A stretch of DNA of 64,000 nt from a virus. Below are positions 2,106-45,386 of the stretch, piece by piece. The stretch lies in the IMG/VR virus record IMGVR_UViG_3300049855_000474, positions 32,001 to 96,000 of that record; one strand, written 5' to 3'. Every line of letters starts with the position of its first letter. The first letter of the stretch is position 1. Both the position numbers and the translations under genes were made by a program. The notes under the pieces are model-generated. The model was not told the DNA's origin. It made no database searches and saw nothing but the letters and a program-made list of their open reading frames with translations.

Positions 2106-2498
2106 ATGAATATCGATAAACTATACAAGCTTGCTATTGCGTTGGAAGCGCAAGAGATGCATGACGAATCTGTCAAAATTGGTCGATTGATTCGAGAAAT
2201 CAACGCCGCTCCTTCGAAGGATTCGGATGTTGAGATTTCAAGCTGGCCTGACTTCCTCGGCTGGTGGAACAACAATCGTGGGCAAGCACTTTCATACATC
2301 TTCATCGATACTTACGGTGAAAATAGCGAGGAAGCCCAGGAAGTAATTAAACTCATTCAGGAGTCAAATGCTCTTGAGGAGCATTTACATAAGTTCTACA
2401 TGCAGCTTCGTCAGAAAGCACAGCAATCAGCTGCTCCTGGACCAGCGGCACCAGCGGCACCAGCAGCTGACGAAGACCTAGAAGACCTGACAGCGTAA
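2106..2498 (+). CDS. Putative internal head protein with leader motif
   Basis: N-terminus KLYKLAIALEAQEMHDESVKIGRLIREINAA; PAA repeats; C-terminus DEDLEDLTA. Confidence 0.55.
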   Translation: MNIDKLYKLAIALEAQEMHDESVKIGRLIREINAAPSKDSDVEISSWPDFLGWWNNNRGQALSYIFIDTYGENSEEAQEVIKLIQESNALEEHLHKFYMQLRQKAQQSAAPGPAAPAAPAADEDLEDLTA

Positions 2499-2502
2499 GT
2501 AA

Positions 2503-2727
2503 ATGAGACCCGACCTTCAGAAACGACTAGAAGCAGTAGCTTCAGTTCTAGATAAAACAGCGGATGTTGCGGAAAGAGCAATATCATCTGAAAAATATCG
2601 CCTACGTAAGCAAATACTAAAGGCAGTTGAAAAAATAGGATCTATTTCTCTGTCCCGAGAACAACAGACCAAAATAGTTGCCTATCTAGATTTGCTTGGT
2701 ACAAAACTAACTAGATTAGGTAAATAG
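2503..2727 (+). CDS. Putative internal head protein (MRxDLQKR leader family)
   Basis: Begins MRPDLQKRLEAVASVLDKTA, a leader shared with 8143, 29997 and 44811. Confidence 0.6.
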   Translation: MRPDLQKRLEAVASVLDKTADVAERAISSEKYRLRKQILKAVEKIGSISLSREQQTKIVAYLDLLGTKLTRLGK

Positions 2728-2736
2728 GCAATACCA

Positions 2737-4113
2737 TTGAGTACCTTTATATCGATAGCTAATAAACTGCAAAAGCTTGCGATTACAGCCTCTACGATGG
2801 CTGAGATACGCAAAGAGCTTATTAATGGCTATGGATGGGAGGCTGGTGATTACATCAACCTCAACAAGGTAATAGGCAAACAGTCTGTATCTATAGATCT
2901 AGAGGGTGACAAAGAGGGCGACCATGCCAAACTCCACGTAAGTTGGAGTTTCAAGGATCGTTCCGGAGTCTACATCTATAAGGATGAGGACATAGAAGAG
3001 ACTGCTCAGAATATCAATGACCTTGCCGAGACGCTACTAAATGAAAGTTCCGATGAGAGGAAAAAGCGTCAACAGAAAGAAAAAGCTGACCTAGTGCAGG
3101 TCCGTAAAGATCGCAAAGAACTAGAGGCTAAGGAAAAAGAAAAGAAAAAGCAGGAAAAAGCCAAAGAGAACTCTGCGGAGAAAATCAAAATTGACAGGAA
3201 TAAAATACACGAAATCAAGTCATGGCTTGTAGATCGTGGCTGGAAGTTAGCAAAAGTTTACGGATATTACAAGGAATTCGGCGATGTACGAGTATGGCTT
3301 ACGTTCGGACGGAATAGTGTATCTATAGGCTCTAGTATTAAAGCTTCCAGTCAAATTGATTTCGAAAATATGGACTCTTTTGAGGCAGCCCAGAAGATTG
3401 ATGAAACTGCTGAAAATCTGGCAATGATCCATACAGAAGGTCCTGATACAAACAAACCAGAGCATCAGGAACTTAAGTTAATCCATGCACTAAACGAGTT
3501 CGGCTGGAAAAATAGCCATATAGACGGCGGAGTACTCCGCACATCTAGGGAACTGCTAGGAACGGAACTCCCTTGTATTATTACAATGGCTATTGACCTG
3601 GAATCGGGTAGAACAAATTTTGCATGGATTGCTAATAATGAGCATCCGATCCAAATACTTTCATGGGTATTGGACATAGCAGATTTGAAGACTAAAGAGC
3701 TTACAGAGAAAATTAACCTACTGTATGATTCTGTCCAGAAGAGTGTTCGCAGAAAGGATGCTATTTTAGGAGAAGAAGTAGCTAAGCAGCAAGAGCAAAA
3801 GAAGAAAGATGATGAGTATAATGCCTGGAAAGCCAAGCAAACTCAAACAATAAATAAAAAAGATAAAGAAGAATCCTGGAAACGACGGCTAGAGCGTGAG
3901 TTAGCACAAAAGAAAGCACCTGCCAAAGCCATTAATCTAGACCCTGCTGCTCTTGAAAATCTCGTAAAAGCTGAAATTAAGACAGCCGAAACTAAAGTAA
4001 CCCCAGGTCGTTGGTTTATGCAAGTCGTAAAACCTGGGCAACGTCGGTATTTCCGAGGATTGAAAACCAAAAAAAAAACGGTGGAATTGCTGGCGTATTA
4101 TATGATGAGATGA
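2737..4113 (+). CDS. Putative internal head protein with three repeated domains; possible frameshifted C-terminal extension to 4229
   Basis: Leader ISIANKLQKLAITAS; three GW...AQ.I...AE.L-like units; A10 run at 4069-4078. Confidence 0.6.
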   Translation: MSTFISIANKLQKLAITASTMAEIRKELINGYGWEAGDYINLNKVIGKQSVSIDLEGDKEGDHAKLHVSWSFKDRSGVYIYKDEDIEETAQNINDLAETLLNESSDERKKRQQKEKADLVQVRKDRKELEAKEKEKKKQEKAKENSAEKIKIDRNKIHEIKSWLVDRGWKLAKVYGYYKEFGDVRVWLTFGRNSVSIGSSIKASSQIDFENMDSFEAAQKIDETAENLAMIHTEGPDTNKPEHQELKLIHALNEFGWKNSHIDGGVLRTSRELLGTELPCIITMAIDLESGRTNFAWIANNEHPIQILSWVLDIADLKTKELTEKINLLYDSVQKSVRRKDAILGEEVAKQQEQKKKDDEYNAWKAKQTQTINKKDKEESWKRRLERELAQKKAPAKAINLDPAALENLVKAEIKTAETKVTPGRWFMQVVKPGQRRYFRGLKTKKKTVELLAYYMMR

Positions 4114-4322
4114 ACACGAAGGCTATTAAAGCCAGCGTGTCCAAGGATAGTTTCAAGCTCTGGTGTGAACTACAAGAAGAACAAGTTCCTGCTTCTATCC
4201 GGAATAAGATTCTAGCGAAAATTTCGTAACATTACGGATTCTTACATCAAAAGCTTGGGCGCCAAGCTTATAACCTAAACGTCGACCTACAGCCATAAGC
4301 TGAGTATCGAAGGATAATAACT

Positions 4323-7544: not shown

Positions 7545-7573
7545 CAAGTACTTAGCTCTAGTAGCTTAAACAA

Positions 7574-7616
7574 AGAAACCGTAGTGGCTTTGATGGCTTC
7601 TACGGTTTCTCTATTT
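7574..7616 (+). terminator. Stem-loop/intrinsic terminator after the sheath gene
   Basis: AGAAACCGTAG (7574-7584) pairs with CTACGGTTTCT (7600-7610), followed by CTATTTT. Confidence 0.6.
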
Positions 7617-8142: not shown

Positions 8143-8433
8143 ATGCGTAGAGAACTACAAAAACGAATAATAAATGTTTCTGCCTCTTTAGTCGCAATGA
8201 AACCCGCAACCAAATTGGCTCATGACGAGCCTGAAGTCGACGCAATAATGAATAAAGTCGACAGTTTACTGACAGAGTCTCTGGACAAAATAGAGCAATT
8301 GAAAGCACTACAACAGGCTTCAAAATATACAGAAGCTGCGGGTGCTTCGGATCTGGCTGCAAAAGCTGCCAGGGATATGTCGGTTCTATTATCAAAAGCT
8401 TCAATACTGCTCAACCAGCGAGCCACAACTTAA
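8143..8433 (+). CDS. Putative internal head protein (MRxELQKR leader family)
   Basis: Begins MRRELQKRIINVSASLVAMKPATKLA. Confidence 0.6.
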   Translation: MRRELQKRIINVSASLVAMKPATKLAHDEPEVDAIMNKVDSLLTESLDKIEQLKALQQASKYTEAAGASDLAAKAARDMSVLLSKASILLNQRATT

Positions 8434-18092: not shown

Positions 18093-18169
18093 TGGCTCTA
18101 GGGGCAGGGCTTGAACCTGCGACCCTTCGTTTAACAGACGAACGCTCTTACCAACTGAGCTACCCTAGA
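18093..18169 (-). tRNA. tRNA-Asn(GTT)
   Basis: Cloverleaf: acceptor TCTAGGG/CCCTAGA, anticodon arm TTCGT-CTGTTAA-ACGAA, GGTTCAA T-loop, encoded CCA. Confidence 0.93.
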
Positions 18170-18180
18170 ATAATAATAAT

Positions 18181-18256
18181 TGGTCCCTGGGATCGGTATC
18201 GAACCGATTGCCTCTGCGGCTTCACTGCAGCGCTCTACCATTTGAGCTACCCAGGG
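18181..18256 (-). tRNA. tRNA-Phe(GAA), atypical anticodon arm
   Basis: Acceptor CCCTGGG/CCCAGGG, anticodon arm CTGCA-GTGAAGC-CGCAG (A31-C39 mismatch, G32), GGTTCGA T-loop, CCA. Confidence 0.8.
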
Positions 18257-18257
18257 T

Positions 18258-18332
18258 TGGTTCCTGGGGTGAGATTCGAACTCACGACTTGTCGATTAAG
18301 AATCGACGACTCTACCGCTGAGTTACCCAGGA
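18258..18332 (-). tRNA. tRNA-Lys(CTT)
   Basis: Acceptor TCCTGGG/CCCAGGA, anticodon arm GTCGA-TTCTTAA-TCGAC, TTCGAAT T-loop, CCA. Confidence 0.9.
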
Positions 18333-28129: not shown

Positions 28130-28846
28130 TTAGCTCTTGAGGGGAAGGTCGAACTTCACACCAAGCATGCCGTTAGCAACGCTGGGAGTCTGCGACACGA
28201 AGCCAATGGCGTTAGCCGCACCACCCGCAGCGGACGACACCTTACCAGCAGCCGCAGGATACACAAGTGCACCCACAGTGTAAGCAACCGAGGTATCGAA
28301 CATCGTGGTGAAGATCTCACCTTCATGAGCACCCACGCTGACCGTCGAGAAGTAATCCTGAGCACGATTATTGACCGAACGCTCATGGAAACGCGACAGG
28401 CTCTCCTGCATGGTGAGCGTGTAACGGTAGGTCACCGTAACAGTCTCGCCAGCCTGAGCAGAGTGGAACGTCACGACAGCATTCACGAGACTGACGGCAT
28501 ACTCGCCCGACGCCGAAGCGTCATCAAGAGTAAGCACGCCAGTCGTGCTCGCCACAGCGCGGGTCGAACCCGACACGAGGTTAGCATTGCTAAGCGTAAC
28601 AGTGTAGGGAGCTGACGAAGGAACGGTCACAGTCTCAACAACCGTATCCGTCAACTTCTTCATTGCATCGGTAATCGCGAAACCCGCAATCGCCTGGTTA
28701 GCACCCGCTCCGCAGGGCTGAACCACCATCGTGCCATCACCGCCGTCAACATAGACAAGCAGCTGGCCTTCCTCAGTGATGCTGGCTCCAGCAGCGACGG
28801 GACGCTCCTTAAGATCAGCAAAGTACGAACGCATCAAATCAAACAT
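28130..28846 (-). CDS. Capsid cement/decoration-like structural protein
   Basis: Ala/Thr/Val-rich beta protein with a C-terminal VGALVY.AAAGKV...IGFV..P pattern typical of decoration proteins; strong GAGGAG SD; last gene of the portal-protease cluster. Confidence 0.6.
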   Translation of the reverse strand: MFDLMRSYFADLKERPVAAGASITEEGQLLVYVDGGDGTMVVQPCGAGANQAIAGFAITDAMKKLTDTVVETVTVPSSAPYTVTLSNANLVSGSTRAVASTTGVLTLDDASASGEYAVSLVNAVVTFHSAQAGETVTVTYRYTLTMQESLSRFHERSVNNRAQDYFSTVSVGAHEGEIFTTMFDTSVAYTVGALVYPAAAGKVSSAAGGAANAIGFVSQTPSVANGMLGVKFDLPLKS

Positions 28847-28897
28847 TTTATATACTCCTCTGTAGAATTCTTACACTAGACGGATGTCTAGATTGGA

Positions 28898-29863
28898 TTA
28901 GCGACTGGACTTGCCAGCCTGGTGACGTGCACGGAAGCCAAAGACCTCACGCAACTGCTCTTTAGGATCGGTCTCTTCAGAGAAACCTGCGGTGTATGTC
29001 ATGAGAGGAACATTCTTCGATGCAGGAGCGACGGCAGTCGAGGCTTCGACCGTGGGCGTACGCTGAGGCATGTCATTGATCTGCTCCTGGATCTCGTTAT
29101 AAGATTCAGGCGAAAGATCCATCCACTTCATGGCTTGCTTGAAAGCGTCATCGAAATACTCTGAGGACTTCTCCTGCCAAGCAGCTTCGATAATCGCAAC
29201 AGCACGATCCGACTCAATACCCGCCGAACGCATACGATTGAAGAGAGCATCCTTGAGCGCGTTAGCGACAATGAAGTTCTTCGTTTGCGCAGTCACAACA
29301 AGGTTAAGCGTATTAACCATGTCATTACGGAGGTTAGCCTTCGCACGACGAAGCTCGTCGGTCGATGCAGCCTTGAGATGAGCTTCGAGCGCCTGGTAGG
29401 CGTCGGAACCCTTGACGGAAGCAACGTAAGCTCGAGCACGAACACCAGCAAGAATCTCTTCAAGATCCATACGGGTAGCCGCGTTCACGATGCCGTGCGC
29501 ATAAGCGTCAGTCGAAAAGACCTTCGCAACGCGCTCCACATCTTCCTGGTCACTCAAACGAATCTGAGCAACGGGCTGACCATCAGCGCACACAAGCCAA
29601 TGAGGATCCGAAGACCTTTCATTGAACAAATGCATGGTGAGTTCAGCAGTCTTCGTCACATTCCTGGGATCGAGTACAGCCGCTGTGAGAGTTTCCGTAG
29701 ACATAATCTCTGCAGTAGGCGCCACGGCGGGCGTAACAGCAGGAGTTACATCACTAGAAACAGTTGCGGTGGGCTGAGACTGTTGTGCGGTCGTGGGAGC
29801 GCCCTGCTTGTTAGCAAGTCGCTTCTGTCGATCCGCCCTTAAGGCTGCCTTGTCGATTGTCAT
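28898..29863 (-). CDS. Putative scaffold/core head protein
   Basis: Ala-rich and helical, between protease and cement, with several x-x-A|S/A sites. Confidence 0.5.
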   Translation of the reverse strand: MTIDKAALRADRQKRLANKQGAPTTAQQSQPTATVSSDVTPAVTPAVAPTAEIMSTETLTAAVLDPRNVTKTAELTMHLFNERSSDPHWLVCADGQPVAQIRLSDQEDVERVAKVFSTDAYAHGIVNAATRMDLEEILAGVRARAYVASVKGSDAYQALEAHLKAASTDELRRAKANLRNDMVNTLNLVVTAQTKNFIVANALKDALFNRMRSAGIESDRAVAIIEAAWQEKSSEYFDDAFKQAMKWMDLSPESYNEIQEQINDMPQRTPTVEASTAVAPASKNVPLMTYTAGFSEETDPKEQLREVFGFRARHQAGKSSR

Positions 29864-29996
29864 AGCATTATCCTTTAATACTAGCCTTGTTGGGTTTCAT
29901 AATATCCTCAGCACCAGTACCGAGGACTTTGGCTCCAGCTAGAGGAGCAACTAAGGGCAATTAAATCACCCTTGAAATTATATAACTAGTCTATGA

Positions 29997-30236
29997 TTAA
30001 GCCAAATCCTGAAGAGTATCACCACCAGCCATCTGGGTAAGCTCATTGTGCTTCGCCCAAAGCTGAGCCAAAGCACTGTGCGCCTTAGGCAACTTGTCCT
30101 TACCTATTTTACCAGATTGTAGGTTTAATGAGATCTTATGAATAAGATTCTCAATATCCTTCAGTTCCTCAGGTCCAGCAAGCTTCTCAATAGCCGCCGC
30201 CACAACATACACTCGCTTTTGTAGATCTTTACGCAT
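29997..30236 (-). CDS. Putative internal head protein (MRKDLQKR leader family)
   Basis: Begins MRKDLQKRVYVVAAAIEKLA; C-terminus GDTLQDLA. Confidence 0.6.
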   Translation of the reverse strand: MRKDLQKRVYVVAAAIEKLAGPEELKDIENLIHKISLNLQSGKIGKDKLPKAHSALAQLWAKHNELTQMAGGDTLQDLA

Positions 30237-30419
30237 TCTTCTTATTCCTGTGAAAATCTCCAGAAAATGGAGAAATTGTAGATCGCTTACAGAATTATAT
30301 AACCAGGTCTTCCAATTTAGTGCAATAGGAGAGAAGATCTTCTAAACTGGTGACTGGGTACTTGGAAAGGTCTTTCCTAAGTAAGAAAATTGTTTTATTG
30401 GCTAATTCAGGGCATTCCA

Positions 30420-30600
30420 TTGACATCCTCCCCTTCTCTAAAGAAGGAGATTCCTAACTCACTTCAGAGCCTACCGTTAGACAGCAGGAACAGGTTTGGC
30501 TTGTGAGGTACTCATTTACCTCAGTGTAAGTCCCTGAGCGCCTAATGGCTTTGTACTTCAGGAACGTCCTTAGCATAGCCCAACCAGCGTTAGTAAACAT
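30420..30600 (-). mobile_element. tnpB: IS200/IS605-family remnant: tnpB fragment plus intact right end
   Basis: AGWAMLRTFLKYKAIRRSGTYTEVNEYLTSQTCSCC is a TnpB RuvC-II/Zn-ribbon segment. It is followed by GGAATCTCCTTCTTTAGAGAAGGGGAGGATGTCAA, the typical right-end hairpin ending in TCAA. Confidence 0.85.
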
Positions 30601-30613
30601 AAGTCCTTGTAAT

Positions 30614-31360
30614 TTATAGCTTATCCCAAGGAGAGCGCCAACGATCATATGCAGTATGATCGGCGGGGCAAACTCCAGGCAAAATTGAAGTTTCAATGTA
30701 GTTTAAATTAAAACAATTTTCATACAATAGTTGTCCGTTGACAACCTGTCCCTTACCTTTACCGTGCTGCATGTGACTACAAGCAATTCGTCCATTAGGA
30801 CTAGTAGCCCCACAACCCGGATAAGAACATTCCGTATAACCAACAAAGGCTCCCATAGAAAAACCAAGACGATCACCACGCAACATTTGCGCAATCATCT
30901 CTGGATCCTTTGTGCGATCCCAAGCAGCAAGTACTACAATTTTGTACTGACCATTAGCTAGCTTCTGTAGTGATGCATCAAGATGCACACCACGGGCTTT
31001 ACGGATGTCCTTGTTGTCGTGATCTCGATGTGTCGGCTTGGAAATAAATGTTTGATAGGCAATTCTTCCAATGTCGGGATTGAACGCTGACACAGCATCA
31101 AAAGTAAAAGCATCAAGGTTTCGATTGGGGACATCTACTGTCACAATGGGGATTTCATTGATGATGTAATCTTTAATATCTGGTGATATATGATACTTTT
31201 CAGCGGCTAGGGGTAGCCAACTGATATCAATGTGTCCGGTTTTATTGAAGATATGGTTTGATGCCATACGGAGCTTACCGGTGGTAGGGTCCCGGAATTG
31301 CTCGCACTTATGCCCTTCGAACTGTCGAGTGGCTGGGGTGGTTTCACCTAGTTTTATCAT
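30614..31360 (-). CDS. Prohead (maturation) protease
   Basis: PNRNLDAF, FISKPTHRDHDN (His), GFSMGA (Ser), Cys-rich Zn insert; directly downstream of portal. Confidence 0.78.
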   Translation of the reverse strand: MIKLGETTPATRQFEGHKCEQFRDPTTGKLRMASNHIFNKTGHIDISWLPLAAEKYHISPDIKDYIINEIPIVTVDVPNRNLDAFTFDAVSAFNPDIGRIAYQTFISKPTHRDHDNKDIRKARGVHLDASLQKLANGQYKIVVLAAWDRTKDPEMIAQMLRGDRLGFSMGAFVGYTECSYPGCGATSPNGRIACSHMQHGKGKGQVVNGQLLYENCFNLNYIETSILPGVCPADHTAYDRWRSPWDKL

Positions 31361-31420: not shown

Positions 31421-33733
31421 TTATTTCATCTTTTTCAGGGCATTAGAATCATCAATGAAACCAGTGAGAAGTCTATCACCGCCGCGTTCGCCGGGAATAG
31501 AAACTCTACTGAAGTCAATGGGCATAGCGGGTTTTGGTTTCTCTACTGCCCCTGGTGCTTCTGGACGAACAAGGGTGTAGGCATAGACATACTGAAGTTC
31601 TGTCTTGAGCGCTGTCTTATCATGAATAGAATCTAGTAGCCCGTCAGTAATATCAGAAGCGATATCTTGACTTAGGGTGATACCGTGAAGTAGACCAGCG
31701 CGAGCAAGTAGGTACTGCAGCACTTGGTCTCTCTTGACATTTCCGGTATCAATGATACTGGAAACTCTTTTTTGCTTGCCGACGACTTTGCTGGATTGGT
31801 TACCGAGATAATCCAGCAATACTTTGGTCGAGTATTCAGCCTGTTCCCTGGTTATACCTAGGAACGAGCCTCGGATAAAATGAGGGAGAGTAGCTACAGC
31901 AGCGATGGAATCCCCATAATCAGAAGTAGTTGTTTCTTTTACGGAGGCTCCAAGAGTGGGAAGTGAGATATTAGAAGGTGCTCCACCTGGGGCACCTCCT
32001 GGTGCTCCACCTCCACCGAGGTCACCACCCATACCACCTGGTGCACCGCCAAGGTCACCTAACCCACCGAGATCACCACCTAAATCAGGGGGAGGACCTC
32101 CACCAGGAGATCCTGTATCAAGGTCCAAACCTGGACCCATGCCACCGCCACCGATACCGCCACCGATACCACCGCCCAAACCACCACCAAGCCCACCACC
32201 ACCTGGAGCACCCATGGTTTCAGGAGCGACTTCTTGTATTTTCTTAGCATGAGCAGAAAGTTGTTTTCTAATTTCGATATCGTCATCAAATTGTGCAATT
32301 TCTGAATCTAGGCTGAAGCCTGCGGAGGCTGCCCAGGTACGCATAGTGACAGGAATACCTTTAGAATTCATGAACTCCAGGATTTCCAGGTAATCTCTAT
32401 CAGCCACAGGGCGAAGGGATTTTTCCCACTTGAAATCTGGGAGCAGAAGGGTTTCATTTGTAGCGTCTTTAGCAACTCGAACCCGGTGATTCAATTCCGC
32501 AGTTGTTCGCTTTACAAAATTATGCTTTTGAGCAATGGGCTTAAGTAGGCGATCAATCAGCAAGTAATGCGTCATGAAATTACGATGCGCCCTAATCTTC
32601 TCTAGGAAGATAGACATTTGCTGTTCGAGGGTGGAGAAGTTAGCATCACCTCTAAGAAAAGCTTCACTTACACCTAGCGAGTTTAGTTTTCCTGATTGCA
32701 GGAAACTCCACTCATCACTGATCTTGAGTATATCCTGTGGAGTACCTCCACCGACCTCATTGGTCTGAACGCCTGTTCGTGTTACAACGATAGCACCAAC
32801 AGGGTCTTCATCTGCTTGCATGAACAAGCTACTGATACCATCAAGTTCTTGGGGACTGGGCTCCCAATCATCAAGACCTACCTGGATGTGACGAATTCTA
32901 GAAAGTCTACGCTTAGCAGAAGCAATTGTACCATTGACAAGTGCCTTCTCGTATGCGACAAACATGAGAATACGTGTATAAGCAGAAGCACCAATAGTAT
33001 CGTAAGGAGCTGTTTTTCTTGGAATATAGAAAGATTGTTCTGGTGGTAGTGGAATTTCTTTACCACTTCGAATCAAATCAACCAGTTCTTTAATTTCACT
33101 CTGGGCGGCTACGTCACGTTCATCTACACTGACAGCCCACCTGCGGTGCTGGGGTGTTGGGATAATATCCAACTTAGGCTGAAAACCTGGAATCGGGATA
33201 GGGTCCACACGAATCCAGTCAGGATCGTGGATAATCATTTTAGTGAAATAGCCTTTGGAATCATCCATATGAAGATGACCAATAACCTTACCCATTTTGA
33301 GAAATTCTGCGCTGATTTCAGGCAGTTGAGCAGTTATATTAATGGCATTCAAGCAATCGGTGTAGGTCTGAAGGACCTCTTTATCTTCAATACCAGTCAG
33401 TTGGAAATCTGACCAAGGAAGTTCTGTATACAAGTCGAGAGCTGGACCAGCAACAGGGTCTTGCAAATGAATACGCCGCCAGATACGATGCAAACGCCTG
33501 GGGTCAACGGGCATAAACTGTTCGATGATTGTACCTTCAGACAAGTCATCGTAAACAGGATTGAATTGGGTACGTCCACCTGCGCCTTGAGCAGGGACCA
33601 TACCACCGGATTGACCACCGAAACCGAAAGTACCAGGATTAGAGTTGCTTGGACTGCCACCGCCAAAAGGAGCTGCTGTCTTCCTACGAAGGGAAGCGAT
33701 GCGCATGCGGTCTGGATGAAATTTAATGGACAT
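31421..33733 (-). CDS. Portal protein with Gly/Pro-rich linker and C-terminal extension
   Basis: DPVAGPALDLYTELPWSDF, EFLKMGKVIG, IHDPDWI and LGVSEAFLRGDANFS motifs; upstream of the protease. Confidence 0.8.
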   Translation of the reverse strand: MSIKFHPDRMRIASLRRKTAAPFGGGSPSNSNPGTFGFGGQSGGMVPAQGAGGRTQFNPVYDDLSEGTIIEQFMPVDPRRLHRIWRRIHLQDPVAGPALDLYTELPWSDFQLTGIEDKEVLQTYTDCLNAINITAQLPEISAEFLKMGKVIGHLHMDDSKGYFTKMIIHDPDWIRVDPIPIPGFQPKLDIIPTPQHRRWAVSVDERDVAAQSEIKELVDLIRSGKEIPLPPEQSFYIPRKTAPYDTIGASAYTRILMFVAYEKALVNGTIASAKRRLSRIRHIQVGLDDWEPSPQELDGISSLFMQADEDPVGAIVVTRTGVQTNEVGGGTPQDILKISDEWSFLQSGKLNSLGVSEAFLRGDANFSTLEQQMSIFLEKIRAHRNFMTHYLLIDRLLKPIAQKHNFVKRTTAELNHRVRVAKDATNETLLLPDFKWEKSLRPVADRDYLEILEFMNSKGIPVTMRTWAASAGFSLDSEIAQFDDDIEIRKQLSAHAKKIQEVAPETMGAPGGGGLGGGLGGGIGGGIGGGGMGPGLDLDTGSPGGGPPPDLGGDLGGLGDLGGAPGGMGGDLGGGGAPGGAPGGAPSNISLPTLGASVKETTTSDYGDSIAAVATLPHFIRGSFLGITREQAEYSTKVLLDYLGNQSSKVVGKQKRVSSIIDTGNVKRDQVLQYLLARAGLLHGITLSQDIASDITDGLLDSIHDKTALKTELQYVYAYTLVRPEAPGAVEKPKPAMPIDFSRVSIPGERGGDRLLTGFIDDSNALKKMK

Positions 33734-35134: not shown

Positions 35135-35668
35135 CTATTTCTTACTTAGCAAGTCATCCAAGGTATCTTCTGAAGTTTTCGATGCAGGGGACTTCATATC
35201 TTCTGTCCGGCGAAGCTTGTGCTTGACGGGCTGATGTTTCTCTTGAGCCTTGTGTTTAATCGAAAGCCGTTTCATAGTAGAAGCAAGCTCCTGAAGATCA
35301 CCAAAGTTCTTGGAGTATTGTTCCAATTGGGCTGATAGCTCATTAAGCTCGGAAGTAGCTTTAATTTTAGCTACCTCTTTAGTGTCCTGCCCAGGCTGAA
35401 GGACCTCGGAGAGCTGAGTAGAGATCTTATTGAGGTACTTCTCAATCTGAGTAGCCGCATCATCCAAGGCATTAATAGCTTGTTTTATTTCTGACTTTTC
35501 TGGTAAGTCCTGCAGAAGAGCCACAAATTCATCAGTATTATCCTGAAGTAGCCCCAGAGGGGTGACTTTAACGGTCTTATCCTCACCTTTGTAACCAACA
35601 CCTCGGGTATTAGTAGTATCAGCGAGCTTAGTAAGCCCCTCAGCGATTTTCTGTATTTTAGTAGACAT
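35135..35668 (-). CDS. Putative internal head protein
   Basis: Leader MSTKIQKIAEGLTKLA; C-terminus EDTLDDLL. Confidence 0.55.
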   Translation of the reverse strand: MSTKIQKIAEGLTKLADTTNTRGVGYKGEDKTVKVTPLGLLQDNTDEFVALLQDLPEKSEIKQAINALDDAATQIEKYLNKISTQLSEVLQPGQDTKEVAKIKATSELNELSAQLEQYSKNFGDLQELASTMKRLSIKHKAQEKHQPVKHKLRRTEDMKSPASKTSEDTLDDLLSKK

Positions 35669-38232
35669 TACTCGCTCTTTTTGCTGGGTGATGCTACATC
35701 CGGAGTCAAGAAACGAATCTTTGGACGACCCATCCCCATCGGTCCACCGTCAACAGGGGAAAAAGTAACGAAAGTACCACCATCAGGAGGAGCCTCCTCT
35801 TCAGAGGAATTATCGTCTTCCTCTTCATCAAGTTCCTCAGTCTCTTCCTCTTCCTCTTCCTCTTCCTCTTCCTCTCCATCAGAATCCTGAGGATTGTCCT
35901 CAACCAACATAGGAGGTGGCGGAGGGGGTGGAATAATCATAGCAGGAGGTGGAGCCATAGGCTCTTGGGGAGGAGGAATAAAAGAAGGCTGAGGTACTCG
36001 AAGCAGATTCATCAGAGAGCTAAAAGCTTCTGGTGTAATTTTGATAGTGACACAATCGACGCCCTCAGAGCCGATCACCATGGAGTGTGGCACTGCCTCA
36101 GCGGCAACAAAAGCAAGCTCTTCCTCGACAACTTCACCAGTTTTGATATCCCTGATGCAATCTTCATCCAGTTCTACAATACGACCAGCTTCCGTAAGGA
36201 CCCGAGCCCCGACAGGCTGATTGACACCAATAAAACCATCTTGCTCGTAGACTTCATCAGCACAAGCTATGACAAAGAAGTCACTGACACGCAGACTAGC
36301 GGCAACAACTTGAAGCTTGCTAGCAACAGTACCGGTAGATTGAGCAGCAATATCGTACAACTTATCAGAAAGCCTCAACATAGGAGGTTTACGGTCAAAG
36401 TCAGAAGCAGCTACAATCTTAGCTTGCGAAACGATGGTCATAGCACAAACGTCATGCTGCCGATAATCAAATAATTCAGGACTCTCGACAACCTGGAAAA
36501 CTTGAATAGGATAACCAAAGTCACACTGAAGCTCAGTCAGGATACGACCCTTATCAGCCTCTAGCTTAAAGGGAACATCCCAAGTGTTTTCAGTGAGCTT
36601 TAGGGCATTGAGCTTCCGCATATAATCAAGGAAGTTCGTATCCATGCGAGCATTGGACGTGAAGGTCATACGCATAACTGCGCTTGTTCGTACAGTGGCA
36701 ACTTTAGGCATAGGCGTTCCTTTATCAAGATCTTCAAGCAACTGACGGTCGGCGCAGATAGCTACCTCGTTTGTCATCAAAAGAGGTTCTCCTGCTACGT
36801 GATACATTGTATAGCTATGAATACCAACACGCTTAGAACTAGGATAACGATCCAAAACAACTGTAATACGATCATCAGAGATCCGAGCGTAATACAATTT
36901 ATCGTCTCGAGACTCTGCCACTTTGAACAAAGCCAAGATTTGGGGGTCATCCTTAGAAATATCCTTGAGCTGATCAATCAATGCTTGATCATCTAATTCC
37001 TCAATCAGACTGAAAAAGGAAGCCAAACGATGCGTTCCAGCAGCAGAACAAATCACATTCTCCCCATGAACACCCTGGTAAGCCGGACACTTTTTATCAT
37101 TAGCCATTTTGCAGTAAGCAAATTTGTCAGTAATATTAGTGTTCTTGGTAGGGAACTCTGGAGCCGGGCAATCATCCAGGTAAACCATCCAAGCACTTCC
37201 CGTGGTAGCAATAGCGGGAATATGACCACCAGAGAAACTCTCTTCCTTGGCAGCTTGGATTAAACCTTCCAAGTCTTCAGCATTTCGCAAATGAAGATTC
37301 TTACGCAGAAGCTGTTGAATAGTAACCAAACGATTCAATGAAGCTTCTTTCATAATAGACAGGGAAGTGTTCAATTCCTGCAATCGACCAGGAAAACTAT
37401 TGACGACATCCACCCATTGAGGGTACAATACCTCACGGTAGTCATTCCAGACACCAGACAAAGTGTCCCAATGAGCTGTCAGATCCTCAAGAAATGCTTG
37501 ACGAGGACGACTAGAAATCTCTACGAACTTATTTACAGTAGCAGCAGAAACGTTCCGAAGCTCTGTATACATTGCCTGGGTTTCAACTTGCAGGGTGTGC
37601 AAGTCATCACGAAGGCGATCTAGAGTCTCATCCTTAGCGAGACGTTCAGCAATAGAATCTACAATTTCTTCAATTTGGTCCTTGACCTTATCGAAACGAG
37701 TAGACAACTCATGCTCGTGAAGCTGGTCAAAGAACCATTGGCATTCATCTACCAAGGCTTCAAAGGTCATAAGCTGAGGTATGACCGTCGTTAGATATTG
37801 GGCAAAGTTGGAATCTTGGAGGTCTTCCCACTCTACAATAGAAAGACCAAGTTCTTTTCGAATATCAGTAGCATCAACAGAGGCTGTAAGGAGACCAAGA
37901 GCAGCAGGTGTTCCACCTTTTCCACCCTTGCCGCCTTTACCCTTGCTCTTTTTCTTATTGACCTTGTGCTTTTGACGCATCAACTTCAAGCGCTGGTGGT
38001 CCTGCTCAGTTCGAATCTTGAGAGTATAAACACCAGTCTCTTCACCCTGCTGGGTATTCTCAGCACGATAATGAAGCTTGTACTTACGCATAGTGGACTT
38101 GAAATGCTGAACACGAGCCTGGTCCGTCAGCTTGTAGTGAAGAACTCCGCTCTGGGAAAGTCCTTTGAAAGCGAGCCCATGCTGCTCACAAAGCATCTTG
38201 ATTAATTTACGTCCCTTTGCGTTAATCGGCAT
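35668..38232 (-). CDS. Large multi-segment protein (putative processed head protein) with Pro/Glu-rich C-terminus
   Basis: 854 aa with repeated x-x-A|S/A sites (LLTAS, KEAS, RLAS, IVAAS, VVAAS). Confidence 0.6.
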   Translation of the reverse strand: MPINAKGRKLIKMLCEQHGLAFKGLSQSGVLHYKLTDQARVQHFKSTMRKYKLHYRAENTQQGEETGVYTLKIRTEQDHQRLKLMRQKHKVNKKKSKGKGGKGGKGGTPAALGLLTASVDATDIRKELGLSIVEWEDLQDSNFAQYLTTVIPQLMTFEALVDECQWFFDQLHEHELSTRFDKVKDQIEEIVDSIAERLAKDETLDRLRDDLHTLQVETQAMYTELRNVSAATVNKFVEISSRPRQAFLEDLTAHWDTLSGVWNDYREVLYPQWVDVVNSFPGRLQELNTSLSIMKEASLNRLVTIQQLLRKNLHLRNAEDLEGLIQAAKEESFSGGHIPAIATTGSAWMVYLDDCPAPEFPTKNTNITDKFAYCKMANDKKCPAYQGVHGENVICSAAGTHRLASFFSLIEELDDQALIDQLKDISKDDPQILALFKVAESRDDKLYYARISDDRITVVLDRYPSSKRVGIHSYTMYHVAGEPLLMTNEVAICADRQLLEDLDKGTPMPKVATVRTSAVMRMTFTSNARMDTNFLDYMRKLNALKLTENTWDVPFKLEADKGRILTELQCDFGYPIQVFQVVESPELFDYRQHDVCAMTIVSQAKIVAASDFDRKPPMLRLSDKLYDIAAQSTGTVASKLQVVAASLRVSDFFVIACADEVYEQDGFIGVNQPVGARVLTEAGRIVELDEDCIRDIKTGEVVEEELAFVAAEAVPHSMVIGSEGVDCVTIKITPEAFSSLMNLLRVPQPSFIPPPQEPMAPPPAMIIPPPPPPPMLVEDNPQDSDGEEEEEEEEEEETEELDEEEDDNSSEEEAPPDGGTFVTFSPVDGGPMGMGRPKIRFLTPDVASPSKKSE

Positions 38233-38236: not shown

Positions 38237-40525
38237 TTATCCTCTAAGAGCCTTGCGAAGCCCTGAAGCTATACGCACAAATGCCTTTACAGATTTCTGT
38301 TTATCTAAGTACTCCAACAGCTTAGAATACAGCTCTTTCTTCATGTCAGATAAGCCATCAACGTACTTTTCTAGACGTTTGGGATCGGCATCAGACATGC
38401 GAGTATAATGATTGACCAATAGAGGGTAGTTATCAGCTTCAGGATGCTTTTTAATGTGGTCGAAAAGCATATTTTCGATTTTCTTACCATCTAAAAGATC
38501 CATATCAGCAACATTAACCAATTTTTGCATAGTAAGATAATCACCGACTTTAAACACGTAGTCTTGAACCTTCTCAACTGCCTTTTTATCTTTATACCAT
38601 TTACCCGCTGTCAGAGCGTTTACGACATAAGCAGGTTCCTCAAGCTCCATAAGACCCTCAAGACAGATCATAAATAGGTCTTCTACCGGAACATTTTTCT
38701 TATCAACTCGAGGAAACAGCTGGGACAAACGAACAATTTCCTGACTCGATACTGCGATGCTTGTATACCTCTCTACCAAAGAATGATAAGGAATACCTTC
38801 AATATCATGACCTACCATTTTACTGATAAATCCAGACAGAGGCATCAGGTCAGCATTCTCTAGGTAGAACTTGGAGATCTTTTTACGGTCTGTACCATCA
38901 AGGGTAGTCAGTTCGGACAGTACAGGCCACATACCAGCGGAGGAATCATCTTTAGCGCGAAGCAAAATAGCATCTTGAAAAAGCTGTAGAACTTCAGGCT
39001 TCTTATTGCGAGATTTAAGGAAGCCACCAACTATCTTAAATAGAAAGCCAGAGTCTGCCTCATCAACAATAGGATAAATCAGTTGCTTGTATTGCTTAGG
39101 TGTAAGTTCCAGTTTTGGATTTACAATTATGGCATACTTTATTCTGGAACCTTCAATGGTTAGGGCATTACCCAGCATGGAATCCAGGTCCAGAAGATCA
39201 CCGTACTCCGTATAGAATTGACCAAGAATACTCACCTTCTGGATTTTCTCGATTAGAGGCTGGAGCTGTTTAGCATATCTATCACCTAAATAATCAAGAG
39301 CATCGTAGGCATTATCAGGTGCTTCCTCATCCGTACAAGTGAGCAAAGCAGCCACGATATCAGAATTGGTAAAATAGTCATGAGCACGACGTCTAACAGA
39401 TAATACTATAATAGAGTTTTTAGAAGCTAATGCTTTGTTGTATAGCTTCTTAGATCCCTCCTCATTTATGCCATGAAGAGCACTGGCGACCTCGACAAGC
39501 ATAAGATCCTCAGCTTTTTCTCCAAAAGCTAAAAGCTCAGGAGAAATCAAGGTCATGTACTCATCACCTGCAAATTCCGCCAACATTTCCGAAACTACAG
39601 TTTCATCACCGTTCTTCAAGATATTCCGAGCTATATCTACATTGAAGCCATTACGTTGCATTTGCGTCATAAGAAAATGAGGGTCTGTATTGAGGTACTC
39701 AGTTATCTTTTCTTGGTATTCTGGAGTACGGGCTATTTCCCAGTTGGAAACAATACGAGCCCAATGCTTCAATTTCGGTTCTGAAAGAAACCAAGCTAAA
39801 ATATACTTCTGGTATTTAGCGACAGGTGGTTGATTTTCTTTACCATAAATCTGAGTTACGGTAAACTCCTGAGCTTCGATAGTCACGTGGGGCTGATTTT
39901 TAGAATCTCTTAAAGAGAAAATCTTGCTATGTCCAGAAGATACGTTATCACAATAAGTACCTACGCAGTGACCCATTAGGTTGCCCTCAACCTCCAGGTC
40001 ATCAGGATCCTCAATAGCCACTATCGTAAAGCCATCAGAAAGTTTACTAACAACTTTCTTGGTCTTATAACTACCTACGGGTCCGTCACCTTTAAGGTGC
40101 TCATGCCAGTGCTGTGATTCCTTGAATGCCTGGTCATACGACAACCTAGAAATATCAGTACCGGTACCACGAGCCCAATCCAGAACAAAAGGAAGATTAT
40201 AATGGGTATCACCCTGCTGCTTCATCAGCTGGTTAGCGAACCACTTAATCTCGTTTTTATCCATATCAAAAGGAACTTGACGTAGAGTATCAATAACTTT
40301 GCTAGGGAATACAGGACCGTCCAGCGCCATACGCTGAAGATTCTGAAAGAACTCCTTCTTGTCTTGCTCAGGAGTAGGCTTATGCTCCGCATTCAACTTA
40401 TCAAAATTGAGTTGCTGAAGATACTTAGCGGCATTGAAAGTAGCTACCTTGTAGGTTCCTAGACTCCTGCGCTGGGCGCGAGCTACCAATGTCAGCAATT
40501 TCCTAGCTAGTACAAGTTTTTTCAT
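38237..40525 (-). CDS. PcfJ-like domain protein with helical repeats
   Basis: DLEVEGNLMGHCVGTY...IFSLRDSKNQPHVTIE...QIYGKENQPP; N-terminal leader ending YKVA. Confidence 0.75.
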   Translation of the reverse strand: MKKLVLARKLLTLVARAQRRSLGTYKVATFNAAKYLQQLNFDKLNAEHKPTPEQDKKEFFQNLQRMALDGPVFPSKVIDTLRQVPFDMDKNEIKWFANQLMKQQGDTHYNLPFVLDWARGTGTDISRLSYDQAFKESQHWHEHLKGDGPVGSYKTKKVVSKLSDGFTIVAIEDPDDLEVEGNLMGHCVGTYCDNVSSGHSKIFSLRDSKNQPHVTIEAQEFTVTQIYGKENQPPVAKYQKYILAWFLSEPKLKHWARIVSNWEIARTPEYQEKITEYLNTDPHFLMTQMQRNGFNVDIARNILKNGDETVVSEMLAEFAGDEYMTLISPELLAFGEKAEDLMLVEVASALHGINEEGSKKLYNKALASKNSIIVLSVRRRAHDYFTNSDIVAALLTCTDEEAPDNAYDALDYLGDRYAKQLQPLIEKIQKVSILGQFYTEYGDLLDLDSMLGNALTIEGSRIKYAIIVNPKLELTPKQYKQLIYPIVDEADSGFLFKIVGGFLKSRNKKPEVLQLFQDAILLRAKDDSSAGMWPVLSELTTLDGTDRKKISKFYLENADLMPLSGFISKMVGHDIEGIPYHSLVERYTSIAVSSQEIVRLSQLFPRVDKKNVPVEDLFMICLEGLMELEEPAYVVNALTAGKWYKDKKAVEKVQDYVFKVGDYLTMQKLVNVADMDLLDGKKIENMLFDHIKKHPEADNYPLLVNHYTRMSDADPKRLEKYVDGLSDMKKELYSKLLEYLDKQKSVKAFVRIASGLRKALRG

Positions 40526-41916: not shown

Positions 41917-42350
41917 TTAGATGGCTTCTTCCTGAATAGTTTATCGACATTGTCCTCTTCCCATCGAAGAGACTTTGTGAAGTACTTGTACTTAGCTTCT
42001 TCTTGCTTGAATGTCTCTGTGTGAAGTATTACTTTATGAGGCTCCCCTACAGGATGCTCCCATGGTACAACCGAGTGAAGCATTTCATGGAATAAGATGT
42101 ATTTTACAAAATAACGAGGAACTGTTTTACAGTCCAAAACAGGACTAATCACTATCAAGTTAGGACCAGAATAATAAGCACCCATTCGGATATTAGAGGA
42201 ACCTGCACGAGGCCACCGACCCCAACTAACTGTAAGCCCCAAATCCTTATGATCGAAATACTCTTCTTGTAAATCTTCCATATACTCTGCAAGGTCATGA
42301 CACTTCCCATACTGGGAACGTCTCATTAAAGGCAAGGAAATTAGCATCAA
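41913..42350 (-). CDS. SprT/YgjP(DUF45)-like zinc metallopeptidase
   Basis: RMGAY...ISPVLD...VPRYFVKYILFHEMLH...H...F. Confidence 0.78.
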   Translation of the reverse strand: MMLISLPLMRRSQYGKCHDLAEYMEDLQEEYFDHKDLGLTVSWGRWPRAGSSNIRMGAYYSGPNLIVISPVLDCKTVPRYFVKYILFHEMLHSVVPWEHPVGEPHKVILHTETFKQEEAKYKYFTKSLRWEEDNVDKLFRKKPSK

Positions 42351-42376
42351 AACCCCAGGAATACAGGATATAAGTA

Positions 42377-42979
42377 TTAAATTTTTGCGGCTAACCTCTG
42401 TTTACGAGCAGCTGTCGCATCCGCTCTAAGATTGATGGGCATCATAGGACGCTGAAGAAACCCATTAGCATTCAGAAATTTAGTACCCTCAGCAAGGTCT
42501 GCGGGATCCCAGCAGTGAGAAACTGCCAGACTCAAATATTCATGAGCAACTTTGTACTTGACATACATCTCAGCCATCTGCTCGATGACCTTTTGGTCAC
42601 GAATAGCTAGTTGTTTCATTCTAGACAAAAAGTCCTCAAGATACTGAGGAGGGAGAGCCTTCTCCAATAGAAGGTACCAAGCATTATCCTCAGCAACAAT
42701 CTGCCAAAGCTTCTCCTTAGGAGCATACTGAACCACAGCTTTCTGCTGCTCCAAATGAAGCGTAGGTATTTCCTCTGGCTGGGCATTCGGATCGGGCTTA
42801 TTAGAGTCAGGAACATTAGGTTCCGCGTACTCCACAGTCGAGGCAGGCTCTGAACTATTGATCACCTTCTCAATCAGACTCTTTAATAGCCCAACTTCCT
42901 CCGGTGTAAACAAGGAGCCCAGTAATACACTTTTCTGATTTTCCATTTGTAGTACTTGTTCTCCCAAGAAATTACCCAA
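42377..42979 (-). CDS. Hypothetical protein
   Basis: 200-aa ORF, co-oriented. Confidence 0.55.
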   Translation of the reverse strand: MGNFLGEQVLQMENQKSVLLGSLFTPEEVGLLKSLIEKVINSSEPASTVEYAEPNVPDSNKPDPNAQPEEIPTLHLEQQKAVVQYAPKEKLWQIVAEDNAWYLLLEKALPPQYLEDFLSRMKQLAIRDQKVIEQMAEMYVKYKVAHEYLSLAVSHCWDPADLAEGTKFLNANGFLQRPMMPINLRADATAARKQRLAAKI

Positions 42980-43003
42980 CTACCTAAATAGACAACGCAG
43001 AAA

Positions 43004-44542
43004 TCATACCGATTTAAGCCACTCACGCAGTTTAGTGGCTGCATCTAAACTGTAGTTACGTTCCATGAAAGGAACTGCCTTATTACTAACTGGCATTTCA
43101 GCAGGATGAGACTGCGTCTGAGGACCCCTACGACGAGGAGTAGCATGAGAATCATTTCCATCATTGTAAGGAACAGAAGGAACACCCGCCTCTACCCCAC
43201 CACCAGCATCACCACCGTCACCACCGTCACCACCGTCACCACCGGCATCACCACCGGCATCACCACCGGCATCACCACCGTCACCACCAGCGTCAGGTGC
43301 TTCATCAGTATCCCGACCATTGTCATCAGTGAGTAGATTCAAAACCTTATCGGTCGCATGATCCAAATGCTCAGGCAACACGTAAACCCCAAGCTGGGAC
43401 CGGAGCTTAGTAATGAACTTACCTACAGACTTATCCTGCTTTTTCTTCTTTTTCTTCGCCACAATAGCCCCCGCTAAACGCTCCACAGTCTCAGCCCCTC
43501 GACTGTACCCAAGCGCTTCCAATCTACTAGAAATGCTATCCGCCAAATCTTCCAAGCTCCGGTCAGTCAAAACAGAAGCCTCTAGTTGCTGACCTGGCTT
43601 GATACACGTAGGCTCACCATGTAGATCGCGCGTAAACGACAAGGGATAACCAAATTTCTTGGTTCCTTTAAAGGACAACGAGACATCCTTCACCAACCAA
43701 GCAATAGGCTTGATCACAGGAAGAGGCTCATCCTTATCCACATACTGCACAGTCAAATGAGGAACAAAGCTAGGAAACGACTCCGTATCCACTAAGTCAG
43801 GATCCAACGATTGCAAACAAGAAACCAATTGATCCCGAAACTTAACAAGCATCGGAGCCTGTATCCGAGCAAAATGAGGAACCTTAGCCTTGTCAGAAGG
43901 AAAAGAACCAGAACCAGAAATAGTCACATGGAAAGGTGCCCAAGTAGAACACAACTCTTGTACAACAGCCTGAACATCCTCAAGCTGATTCTTCTTCAGA
44001 GTCAGGGAACAAAGAGTAATATGCGGTGGATCCTCAAGGTCCTTCGCCCCAGGTACCCGACCACAAACCTGAGCCCAGATATTCTCAGGTACTAGAACCT
44101 CTACGATACTCGACTCATGAGCCTTCGCATCAACCACTAGAGAAGCCTGAGTAATACTAGCTGACCGAATGCTAGTAACTACCATAATAAACTTGTGATT
44201 CAAAGCATCAGCAGCATCAGCCCCAGCAACCAACTTAGTCGTATCTGCCAAAACCCCTAAAAATTCCTCTCTACCAACCTTGAAACGCATCGCATTGTTA
44301 ATAGAAGAACGAAGTGAATTGTAGATTTTTAGAAACTCGTTAGAGTCCTCGTACCGCCAAAGGAACTCCAAACTAAGCTCATCATCCGACTTATCACCAG
44401 TTGCACTCGCACGCAAAAAAGTGATAGGATGAGAAGAGCCATTTAACGACAACTCCACATCCATCCCGTTGTATTTGCCCAAAGCATGGACAGCGACCTG
44501 GGGATTTGTAATGCTTTGCTCAGCCGTGACTACTCTAAACAT
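43004..44542 (-). CDS. 2H phosphoesterase (LigT/Acb1-like) domain embedded in a leader-bearing head-type protein
   Basis: Two HxT motifs (PPHITL, VPHLTV) about 88 aa apart; N-terminus MFRVVTA; internal helical motif copy; GGD(A) repeats. Confidence 0.8.
   Translation of the reverse strand: MFRVVTAEQSITNPQVAVHALGKYNGMDVELSLNGSSHPITFLRASATGDKSDDELSLEFLWRYEDSNEFLKIYNSLRSSINNAMRFKVGREEFLGVLADTTKLVAGADAADALNHKFIMVVTSIRSASITQASLVVDAKAHESSIVEVLVPENIWAQVCGRVPGAKDLEDPPHITLCSLTLKKNQLEDVQAVVQELCSTWAPFHVTISGSGSFPSDKAKVPHFARIQAPMLVKFRDQLVSCLQSLDPDLVDTESFPSFVPHLTVQYVDKDEPLPVIKPIAWLVKDVSLSFKGTKKFGYPLSFTRDLHGEPTCIKPGQQLEASVLTDRSLEDLADSISSRLEALGYSRGAETVERLAGAIVAKKKKKKQDKSVGKFITKLRSQLGVYVLPEHLDHATDKVLNLLTDDNGRDTDEAPDAGGDGGDAGGDAGGDAGGDGGDGGDGGDAGGGVEAGVPSVPYNDGNDSHATPRRRGPQTQSHPAEMPVSNKAVPFMERNYSLDAATKLREWLKSV
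43199..43294 (-). repeat. Coding GGD/GGDA repeat (9-nt and 12-nt units)
   Basis: caccaccgt and caccaccggcat units. Confidence 0.85.
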
Positions 44543-44544
44543 AA

Positions 44545-44814
44545 TTAAATCTTCCTATCCATCTCGCGAAGTAAGCGACGACAAATTGCATCCCATTGAG
44601 GATCCTCTAAAACTTTCTCAATAGCCTCTCTAAGCTCAAGCTCTGCACTAGAGTTCTTTACAGGTACAGGAGAAAATTCAGGATAAGCCGGTCGAGCTAT
44701 AGACCCCCAAGGATGAGGTCCATTATAACCCTGAGCCATGTAATATAAAGTTCGCACTAACTCAGACTTAAACTTAACCCTGGCTCTCTCCGTAGTTAGA
44801 GAGTTTCGACTCAC
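44545..44814 (-). CDS. Hypothetical protein
   Basis: GTGA-coupled ORF. Confidence 0.5.
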   Translation of the reverse strand: MSRNSLTTERARVKFKSELVRTLYYMAQGYNGPHPWGSIARPAYPEFSPVPVKNSSAELELREAIEKVLEDPQWDAICRRLLREMDRKI

Positions 44815-45386
44815 TTACTAGCCTCAATATGTGCCTTAAGCTGCTCGGAAAAAGAAGCTGTTTTAACCGCTGCTTCACGTGCAGCTATACGAGCCTTCCG
44901 TGCCTCACCAGCAGCAGAAACCTTAGCCAACTTCTGTCCGCCAACGTACTTTCGAAGCATCTTAGCCATGAAAGAAACAACGGACTTCACATCCTTAGCG
45001 CTAATAGCCCCTGCATTAGCCATCGACTTAGCCATCTGAGCCAAAGGATTCACCACCTCAAAAGGCACAAGCCCACCCTTCAAGAACTCAGCAAAAGCAG
45101 CCACATCCTCTTTCTTAGCCACAGGCAATTCATCAGTCGCAGGAAGAGGGGGATGAACTTTGTCCTTAGGCTTATCAAGAACACGCTGATTCTGATGGAG
45201 AGCGCCAGTATCATCCTTCTCCTGAAGATCATTCAAAGTTTTCTCTTGCTCTTTACGAAAAAACTTCTTCCAGAAAGGCGATTCCGCCTGCGGCTTCTGC
45301 TGTTCCAGAGCTAGACGCGTCATACCCGCCGTACGGTCCAATACCGCAGCAACCGTCAATAGGCGCTTTTGCACATCTTTTCGCAT
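44811..45386 (-). CDS. Putative internal head protein (MRKDVQKR leader family)
   Basis: Start ATG at 45386: MRKDVQKRLLTVAAVLDRTA; near the C-terminus VKTASF. Confidence 0.6.
   Translation of the reverse strand: MRKDVQKRLLTVAAVLDRTAGMTRLALEQQKPQAESPFWKKFFRKEQEKTLNDLQEKDDTGALHQNQRVLDKPKDKVHPPLPATDELPVAKKEDVAAFAEFLKGGLVPFEVVNPLAQMAKSMANAGAISAKDVKSVVSFMAKMLRKYVGGQKLAKVSAAGEARKARIAAREAAVKTASFSEQLKAHIEASK

Follow-up and report, generated by a model that had tools for sequence, protein, structure and literature searches.

A Shared N-terminal Leader on Small Proteins of an Uncultured Huge Phage with phiRSL1-type Head Genes: A Possible Head-docking Helix

Four Small Genes with a Common N-terminus

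The window analyzed here is a stretch of 64,000 nucleotides that covers bases 32001-96000 of the 153,375-base IMG/VR virus record IMGVR_UViG_3300049855_000474 (CheckV completeness 36%). Since the genomes of complete relatives measure 350-424 kb, this record is part of a huge phage genome; its likely source sequencing run is labelled as a freshwater sediment metagenome. In the window, four small genes that lie up to 43 kb apart and on both strands, starting at 2503 and 8143 on the plus strand and at 30236 and 45386 on the minus strand, open with almost the same 20 residues (M-R-x-[DE]-[LV]-Q-K-R..V-[AS]) and then diverge. This pattern was first pointed out in a sequence-only reading of the window, and both its coordinates and its sequences were confirmed. 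In this paper we look at this leader, at the proteins that carry it and at its possible role as a docking helix in head assembly.

The first of the four genes, g2503 (2503..2727, plus strand), encodes 74 amino acids; its leader, codons 1-21 (2503-2565), reads MRPDLQKRLEAVASVLDKTAD and is followed by a basic body. Its orthologues are P0008 and P0023. g8143 (8143..8433, plus strand) encodes a 96 amino acid protein with the leader MRRELQKRIINVSASLVAMKP (8143-8205), and its orthologue P0009 differs by a four-residue insertion or deletion immediately past the leader. g30236 (29997..30236, minus strand) is located between the genes for the head maturation protease and a scaffold-like protein. It encodes 79 amino acids, of which the leader, MRKDLQKRVYVVAAAIEKLAG (30174-30236), ends in a G-P helix break. 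In its close relative P0003 the leader is the same and the body 81% identical, but a long helical C-terminal extension brings the protein to 154 amino acids. Only 133 bases lie between the g30236 stop and the start of the scaffold-like gene, and some 75 codons appear to have been either lost in the window gene or gained in P0003. The fourth gene, g45386 (44811..45386, minus strand; 191 amino acids from the ATG at 45386), encodes a protein in which the leader helix and then an FWKKFF motif are joined by a disordered, Pro-rich linker to a helical C-terminal domain that is conserved. Over its whole length it shares 40-47% identity with its orthologues P0004 and P0010-12, whose leaders are ~80-85% identical in P0010-12 and 70% identical in P0004.

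The Leader as a Protein-level Module

Several lines of evidence show that the leader stands out from the rest of the phage proteome. A six-frame scan of the whole 153,375-base contig with the pattern M[RK]x[DE][LVIM][QK][KR]R gives exactly four matches, each of them at the ATG that opens an open reading frame (ORF). With a hidden Markov model (HMM) of the leader the four members score 40-45 bits, while the next best of the 200 predicted proteins reaches 2.6 bits. When all N-termini were compared against each other, five of the six leader pairs scored 46-65, above the null maximum of 42, and the sixth scored 39, where the 99.99th percentile is 38. The sole comparable pair is formed by two endonuclease paralogues, and the N-termini at 35135 and 84362, which look alike by eye, score within the noise of the 18,721 comparisons.

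The similarity is confined to the first residues of each protein. Past residue ~21-24 no similarity could be detected among the four proteins, and profile-profile alignment by hhalign of the g30236 and g45386 families aligns columns 1-24 and nothing beyond them. Between orthologues the leader is kept at least as well as the body: the leader and body identities are 21/21 and 81%, 20/21 and 75%, and 14/20 and 41% in three orthologue pairs. At the DNA level the picture is different. Residues that are identical between the paralogues are encoded by different codons in 38 of 55 cases (69%), and the four upstream regions cannot be aligned. Because of these two results, selection can be placed on the peptide; as judged from the codons, the conservation of the leader is old and reflects neither a recent copy nor an RNA signal. 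The HMM scores, the codon usage and the alignment of columns 1-24 thus uphold the earlier proposal of a discrete N-terminal module on small proteins with unrelated bodies.

Breadth of the Leader Family

In order to see how far the leader extends, a 30-column leader profile was run in an exhaustive HMMER search against 1.84 billion representative proteins (E ≤ 0.001). It returned 21 matches, of which 20 are real clusters, all of 64-262 amino acids. The remaining one, P0016 (1899 amino acids), is a false match to a YadA-like adhesin repeat. The best-scoring leader match begins at Met1 in 18 of the 20 clusters, and the motif is found at Met1 of the called protein in 19 of 20 if P0014 is counted; in P0021 it begins at Met11, which is probably the true start. 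P0014 (262 amino acids) carries leader copies at residues 1 and 132, the latter scoring best. It is probably two tandem genes that were read as one, with a true fusion as the alternative. At least eight body types are found among the 20 clusters, among them the g30236-like three-helix type (A6), the g45386 type (A8), those of g2503 and g8143, and several others.

With h for a hydrophobic residue, the leader consensus reads M-R-x-D-L-Q-K-R-h-x-x-V-A-x-x-L-[DE]-[KR]-x-A. M1, R8 and V12 are invariant in the alignment and R2, D4, L5, Q6, A13 and L16 are nearly so, which makes residues 1-13 the best-kept part. Position 17 (D/E) and position 18 (K/R) are conserved as well, and the [KR]-x-A-G end is gone in distant members. 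Residues 9-16 are amphipathic and flanked by charges, with variable charged positions inside (E10 in g2503, K14 in several relatives). A Sec or Tat signal peptide or a membrane anchor was considered and rejected, as there is no uninterrupted hydrophobic core of about 10-20 residues after the basic N-region.

Other searches added little. None of the carriers tested against Pfam (the four leader proteins and relatives) rose above threshold, a PHROGs search with the leader proteins gave nothing, and an ESM Atlas search with g45386 found no meaningful neighbour (best feature score 0.78, template modelling score below 0.35). Searching IMG/VR and the JGI metagenomes with the leader alignment gave pattern matches, none of which was confirmed by tblastn, a search that is limited by the short query. 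A literature search on the leader motif returned apolipoprotein E helices only.

Predicted Structure of the Leader Proteins

AlphaFold2 (AF2) models of two of the proteins were built from shallow alignments. g30236 is predicted to form three helices (2-18, 23-40 and 46-71; mean predicted local distance difference test, pLDDT, of 68), the first of which is the leader helix and is ended by G-P. In the g45386 model the leader helix spans residues 3-28 and is followed by ~60 disordered residues, a helical domain at 92-150 (pLDDT ~80) and a long terminal helix. The hydrophobic leader positions 5, 9, 12, 13 and 16 fall on one side of the helix.

Head Genes and Genomic Context

The head genes around the leader genes can be assigned, from their sequences, to the phiRSL1 type. 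The head maturation protease (30614..31360, minus strand) matches phrog_18299 (E = 6.2e-52), and in an alignment of 102 homologues His113 and Ser167 are invariant. No Pfam match and no PDB match by sequence was found for it, including in a PDB search with the protease profile. We infer that the invariant His...Ser pair would fit an assemblin-like serine protease. Between the protease gene and g30236 there is a gap of 377 non-coding bases (30237-30613); the corresponding junction in the nearest relative, G001, measures 25 bases. In the likely source run the contigs break in this gap, with loose ends at 30418-30590 and a depth spike of 142 against ~50. This points to a repeat or a variable element, of which the 153-kb contig contains no second copy.

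The portal protein (31421..33733, minus strand; phrog_16240, E = 2.6e-104) begins, in all inner-clade relatives, with a conserved SIKFNxxRMRxASLRK segment that runs into a long low-complexity stretch rich in Gly. On the other side of g30236 lies the scaffold-like protein (28898..29863, minus strand; phrog_20988), a homologue of phiRSL1 ORF134, which is annotated as 'ATPase' and has the same position. The N-terminus of the scaffold-like protein is conserved clade-wide (..AALRAARQKRLAAR..), and its RADRQKRL is the best, non-significant match to leader residues 2-9. The option that the leader mimics the scaffold N-terminus was therefore kept as a lead only, with scaffold residues 9-16 giving the best local alignment at E = 0.21; it might indicate a binding site that the leader has in common with the scaffold N-terminus. 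Next comes a 238 amino acid virion structural protein of the phiRSL1 ORF135 type, identified by phrog_16710 (E = 1.8e-18) and by synteny (28130..28846, minus strand). Three contigs of a sediment metatranscriptome library match the genes of the 238 amino acid protein and the scaffold-like protein exactly (window 28413-29931). None of them aligned on g30236, and these contigs cannot show transcript ends and may come from DNA carry-over.

The major capsid protein (MCP; 47170..48306, minus strand; phrog_2522, E = 2.4e-59) is ~34% identical to the MCPs of phiRSL1, BcepSauron and Motura, and megablast of the head region against cultured phages gave no match. Two paralogous endonuclease-like genes with a common N-terminus (45538-46578 and 46677-47054, both minus strand; PHROG matches to Holliday junction resolvase and endonuclease families) separate the MCP gene from g45386. 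This is seen in the present phage only, the pair being absent from G001, and they look like mobile endonuclease insertions.

Two further features lie in the same stretch. A 762 amino acid protein in the head-gene block (38237-40525, minus strand) has a PcfJ-like domain (PF14284, E = 2.5e-14, residues 162-241), and a cluster of three tRNA genes (Asn-GTT, Phe-GAA and Lys-CTT; 18093-18332, minus strand) is found where the plus-strand gene block switches to the minus-strand block. PDB sequence searches with the neighbouring proteins of 1073 and 993 amino acids gave nothing useful.

The position of the leader genes was followed in the relatives. In G001, whose protease is 73% identical, one leader gene (MKNSIKKRITVVAKSLEKLA) is found between the protease and the scaffold, as g30236 is, and another (MKKDTQKRLLTVAHVLNKVG) directly downstream of the MCP gene, without inserts. 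The block around g2503 and g8143 has a syntenic counterpart in G001 from which both small genes are missing; since the surrounding DNA is otherwise kept, these two can be classed as accessory genes. More distant clade members, with proteases that are 54-66% identical, carry small genes with a related N-terminus (for example MRPDLEKRFLKV.., MRPDLQKRFLKV.., MRPDIQERLIRV.. and MREDLQTRIAKV..) after the MCP gene or in the same module, often in tandem. A leader gene follows the MCP gene in G001, G002, G003, G006 and other relatives and lies within the same module in G004; in G002 the genes downstream of the MCP gene are in tandem. The complete 424-kb genome of G003 has four leader-type starts, G002 has two strong ones, G004 one and G005 none. 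Two of the G003 carriers, of 363 and 388 amino acids, are full-length paralogues of each other (33% identical) and are encoded outside the head genes. The set of carriers thus differs among close relatives, from 0 to 4 in the complete ones, and two stable lineages that are kept in relatives sit in head modules, one between protease and scaffold and the other after the MCP.

Discussion

One of the questions that is raised by these data is what a short N-terminal peptide does on proteins that share nothing else. The reading that we favour, and which we hold tentatively, is that the leader acts at the N-terminus as a portable helix for docking to the prohead and is a counterpart of the T4 capsid targeting sequence (CTS). 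Its fixed position at Met1, its near-invariant polar residues and the unrelated bodies behind it speak for a common partner that recognizes it. This partner is most likely to be located in the prohead because the stable lineages lie between protease and scaffold and after the MCP, and because the variable membership recalls that of the T-even internal proteins. We infer both the docking and the location of the partner in the prohead. According to this proposal, a helix of ~20 residues at the N-terminus would dock to one common partner in the assembling prohead, for which the scaffold core, the inner capsid surface, the portal or the protease are candidates, and in this way several small helical proteins would enter the head or attach to it. 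The probable origin of the helix is the first helix of a conserved small protein whose gene comes just after the MCP gene in this clade; duplication would then have carried it to new small genes. There the helix would have remained under selection as the bodies diverged or gave way to others. The broader statement that a whole clade of huge freshwater and sediment phages (350-425 kb) has its own head-docking helix, taken from the first helix of the post-capsid protein and gained by duplication, is more doubtful.

Several observations weigh against a head-docking helix. No cultured relative carries the leader, and phiRSL1 ORF133 and ORF137 do not share it. The carriers are few per genome, with four in this fragment, and the two G003 carriers of 363 and 388 amino acids are outside the head genes. 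The confidence of the AF2 models is modest (mean pLDDT 64-68), and the conservation of one face of the helix is not significant by permutation (p = 0.18), its direction fitting the hydrophobic face. Finally, in the post-MCP family of 113-137 amino acids the helix is continuous with the body and varies between orthologues (MEKSIAERLRQV, MDSGLQKRVVLA), so that in this family the leader may be just the first helix of the fold.

Another explanation, which we consider rather unlikely, is that the leader is a real docking module whose partner lies outside the capsid, for example a hub protein of the host or the phage such as a polymerase, a chaperone, a protease adaptor or a membrane component, and that the position beside head genes reflects late co-expression only. 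This would fit the two leader proteins of the complete G003 genome that are encoded among DNA-metabolism and tRNA-region genes, as well as g2503 and g8143, which lie in a block of unknown genes running into SbcD-like and PhoH-like genes. However, both evolutionarily stable lineages are inside head modules, and no enzyme or other non-head gene recurs beside the leader genes in the loci that were inspected.

It may also be that the leader has no portable function. In such a case the carriers would be one fast-evolving family of small helical paralogues, with the strongest constraint on the first helix of the fold and with bodies too far diverged for their similarity to be detected. This would fit the small size and the helical nature of all carriers; the tandem pairs (G002 and the read-through P0014) and the 363/388 amino acid paralogues point to duplication as the mode of spread, and the helix of the post-MCP family runs on into its body. 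Yet the bodies differ in length (64-262 amino acids) and in architecture, with three helices in one case and a helix, a 60-residue disordered linker and a C-terminal domain in the other, and hhalign finds nothing past column 24. A motif at the extreme N-terminus in which the polar residues R2, D4, Q6 and R8 are almost fixed would also be unusual for a helix that is merely structural. We regard this explanation as unlikely.

The sequence-only reading had gone much further. It proposed that a strict tag and a looser version of it address many proteins, even large ones, to the head, where the protease would cut them after Ala before their injection. The T4 analogy on which it drew is reasonable, as one carrier lies between the protease (phrog_18299) and the scaffold-like gene and another follows the MCP gene in G001. 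It is also true that in most close members the leader closes with [DE][KR][LVIT]A and the next residue is G, A or P, and that the protease gene adjoins one member. Against this, the looser amphipathic helix that had been placed at 2106, 2737, 9088, 34722, 35668 and 40525 does not score with the leader profile at any of these genes, and the internal copies claimed in 9088, 43004 and 35668..38232 do not match it either. The loose [KR]-x-A ending occurs in the first 30 residues of 52 of 194 proteins, where shuffled sequences give 45 ± 5, and is thus not enriched; a narrower form chosen post hoc, [KR][LTVM]A, loses its significance and is only marginally enriched once the four family members are left out. 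The motif [LIVMA][DE][KR][LIVTM]A occurs 11 times in the proteome, and three of its eight non-family sites are in head-module proteins, an enrichment that is post hoc and not significant; the only non-family site that was checked is not conserved.

The proposed cleavage sites do not fare better. The strings 'RRKTAA' in the portal and 'RVMAS' in the MCP are indeed present, but their similarity to the leader does not hold up, since in profile-profile comparisons the leader has no significant match to the portal (E = 0.66), the MCP (E = 0.25) or the scaffold (E = 0.21). At the supposed VMA|S site of the MCP the relatives read VMRQA, VMRSA or VMRDA, and 'VERLAG' of a 512 amino acid protein is absent from all of its orthologues. 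Cleavage after Ala as such finds no support, as relatives that keep residues 1-13 have LDRLEHI, VHLLHRI or NKVGQ in place of the [KR]-x-A end. Nor is the cargo diverse in the sense that had been suggested, as the carriers from the database search are all within 64-262 amino acids, those tested have no Pfam domain above threshold, and neither search found a large or enzymatic carrier. Taken as a whole, this extended model is very improbable. An origin of the motif by chance, by recent DNA duplication or gene conversion, or as an RNA- or DNA-level signal in the 5' coding region can be dismissed, since nothing beyond the shortness of the motif speaks for it while the members score 40-45 bits over a background of at most 2.6, use different codons at 69% of identical residues, have flanks that do not align, and recur in distant relatives with a different nucleotide sequence.

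A prohead-docking helix can be compared with several known systems. The T4 CTS comprises about 10 residues, and the T4 protease cuts after Glu in L/I-x-E. As in the T4 proteins IPI, IPII, IPIII and Alt, an extreme N-terminal peptide is here the sole common part of small, diverse proteins, and the set of carriers varies between related phages; in the present phage the genes of two carriers lie within head modules. The CTS of T4 takes internal proteins into the scaffolding core (PMC3012670), and packaging of foreign proteins by means of the CTS was shown with GFP and a nuclease (PMC3012670). The T-even genes for internal proteins are variable and have only the CTS in common (PMC3012670). The differences from T4 are as clear. 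The sequences are unrelated, the leader is a ~20-residue amphipathic helix without a conserved cleavage motif, and its putative link to the head is by gene position. MCP, portal and scaffold have no significant similarity to it. The protease is not of the T4 gp21 family: phrog_18299 is its only match, and sequence searches of Pfam and the PDB gave no relative.

To our knowledge, the propeptides of phiKZ-like phages share a cleavage motif only and have no common leader sequence. Reports on the phiKZ-like giant phages SPN3US and 201phi2-1 describe a prohead protease that trims many head proteins (PMC7411985, PMC10052503). The present case is different in that a common leader exists and no cleavage motif can be demonstrated, and in that MCP and protease belong to the phiRSL1 type and not to the phiKZ type.

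In Staphylococcus phage 80alpha, capsid and scaffold proteins share an N-terminal extension, a mimic of ribosomal protein L27 that the host protease Prp cuts off. Several proteins that begin with the same short motif are found in both cases, but in 80alpha it is the capsid and scaffold proteins themselves that carry the motif, as a cleavage signal for a host enzyme, whereas here MCP, portal and scaffold are without the leader. In encapsulins, cargo-loading peptides, which are short, terminal, usually C-terminal and extended, dock varied cargo inside a shell of the HK97 fold; these are bacterial compartments and not phages, and their peptides have no sequence similarity to the leader. The closest parallel in gene order is Ralstonia phage phiRSL1, where ORF132-137 comprise protease, small ORF, scaffold (ORF134), structural protein, MCP and small ORF. 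Its two small ORFs, ORF133 and ORF137, nevertheless share no N-terminus with each other or with the leader.

If the leader is a head-docking helix, it would extend a known idea modestly without amounting to a new kind of system, because its family is small and narrow: some 20 clusters in 1.84 billion proteins, with a few genes in each genome and no enzyme among the cargo. It would nonetheless involve a tag and a protease family unrelated to those of T4, and N-terminal address peptides for capsid cargo would have arisen independently of T4, in a lineage that has a phiRSL1-type capsid and a different protease. The packaged, and perhaps injected, proteins of uncultured phages would then become readable from sequence, and the leader would allow accessory proteins associated with the head to be recognized by sequence in phages that are out of reach of cultivation.

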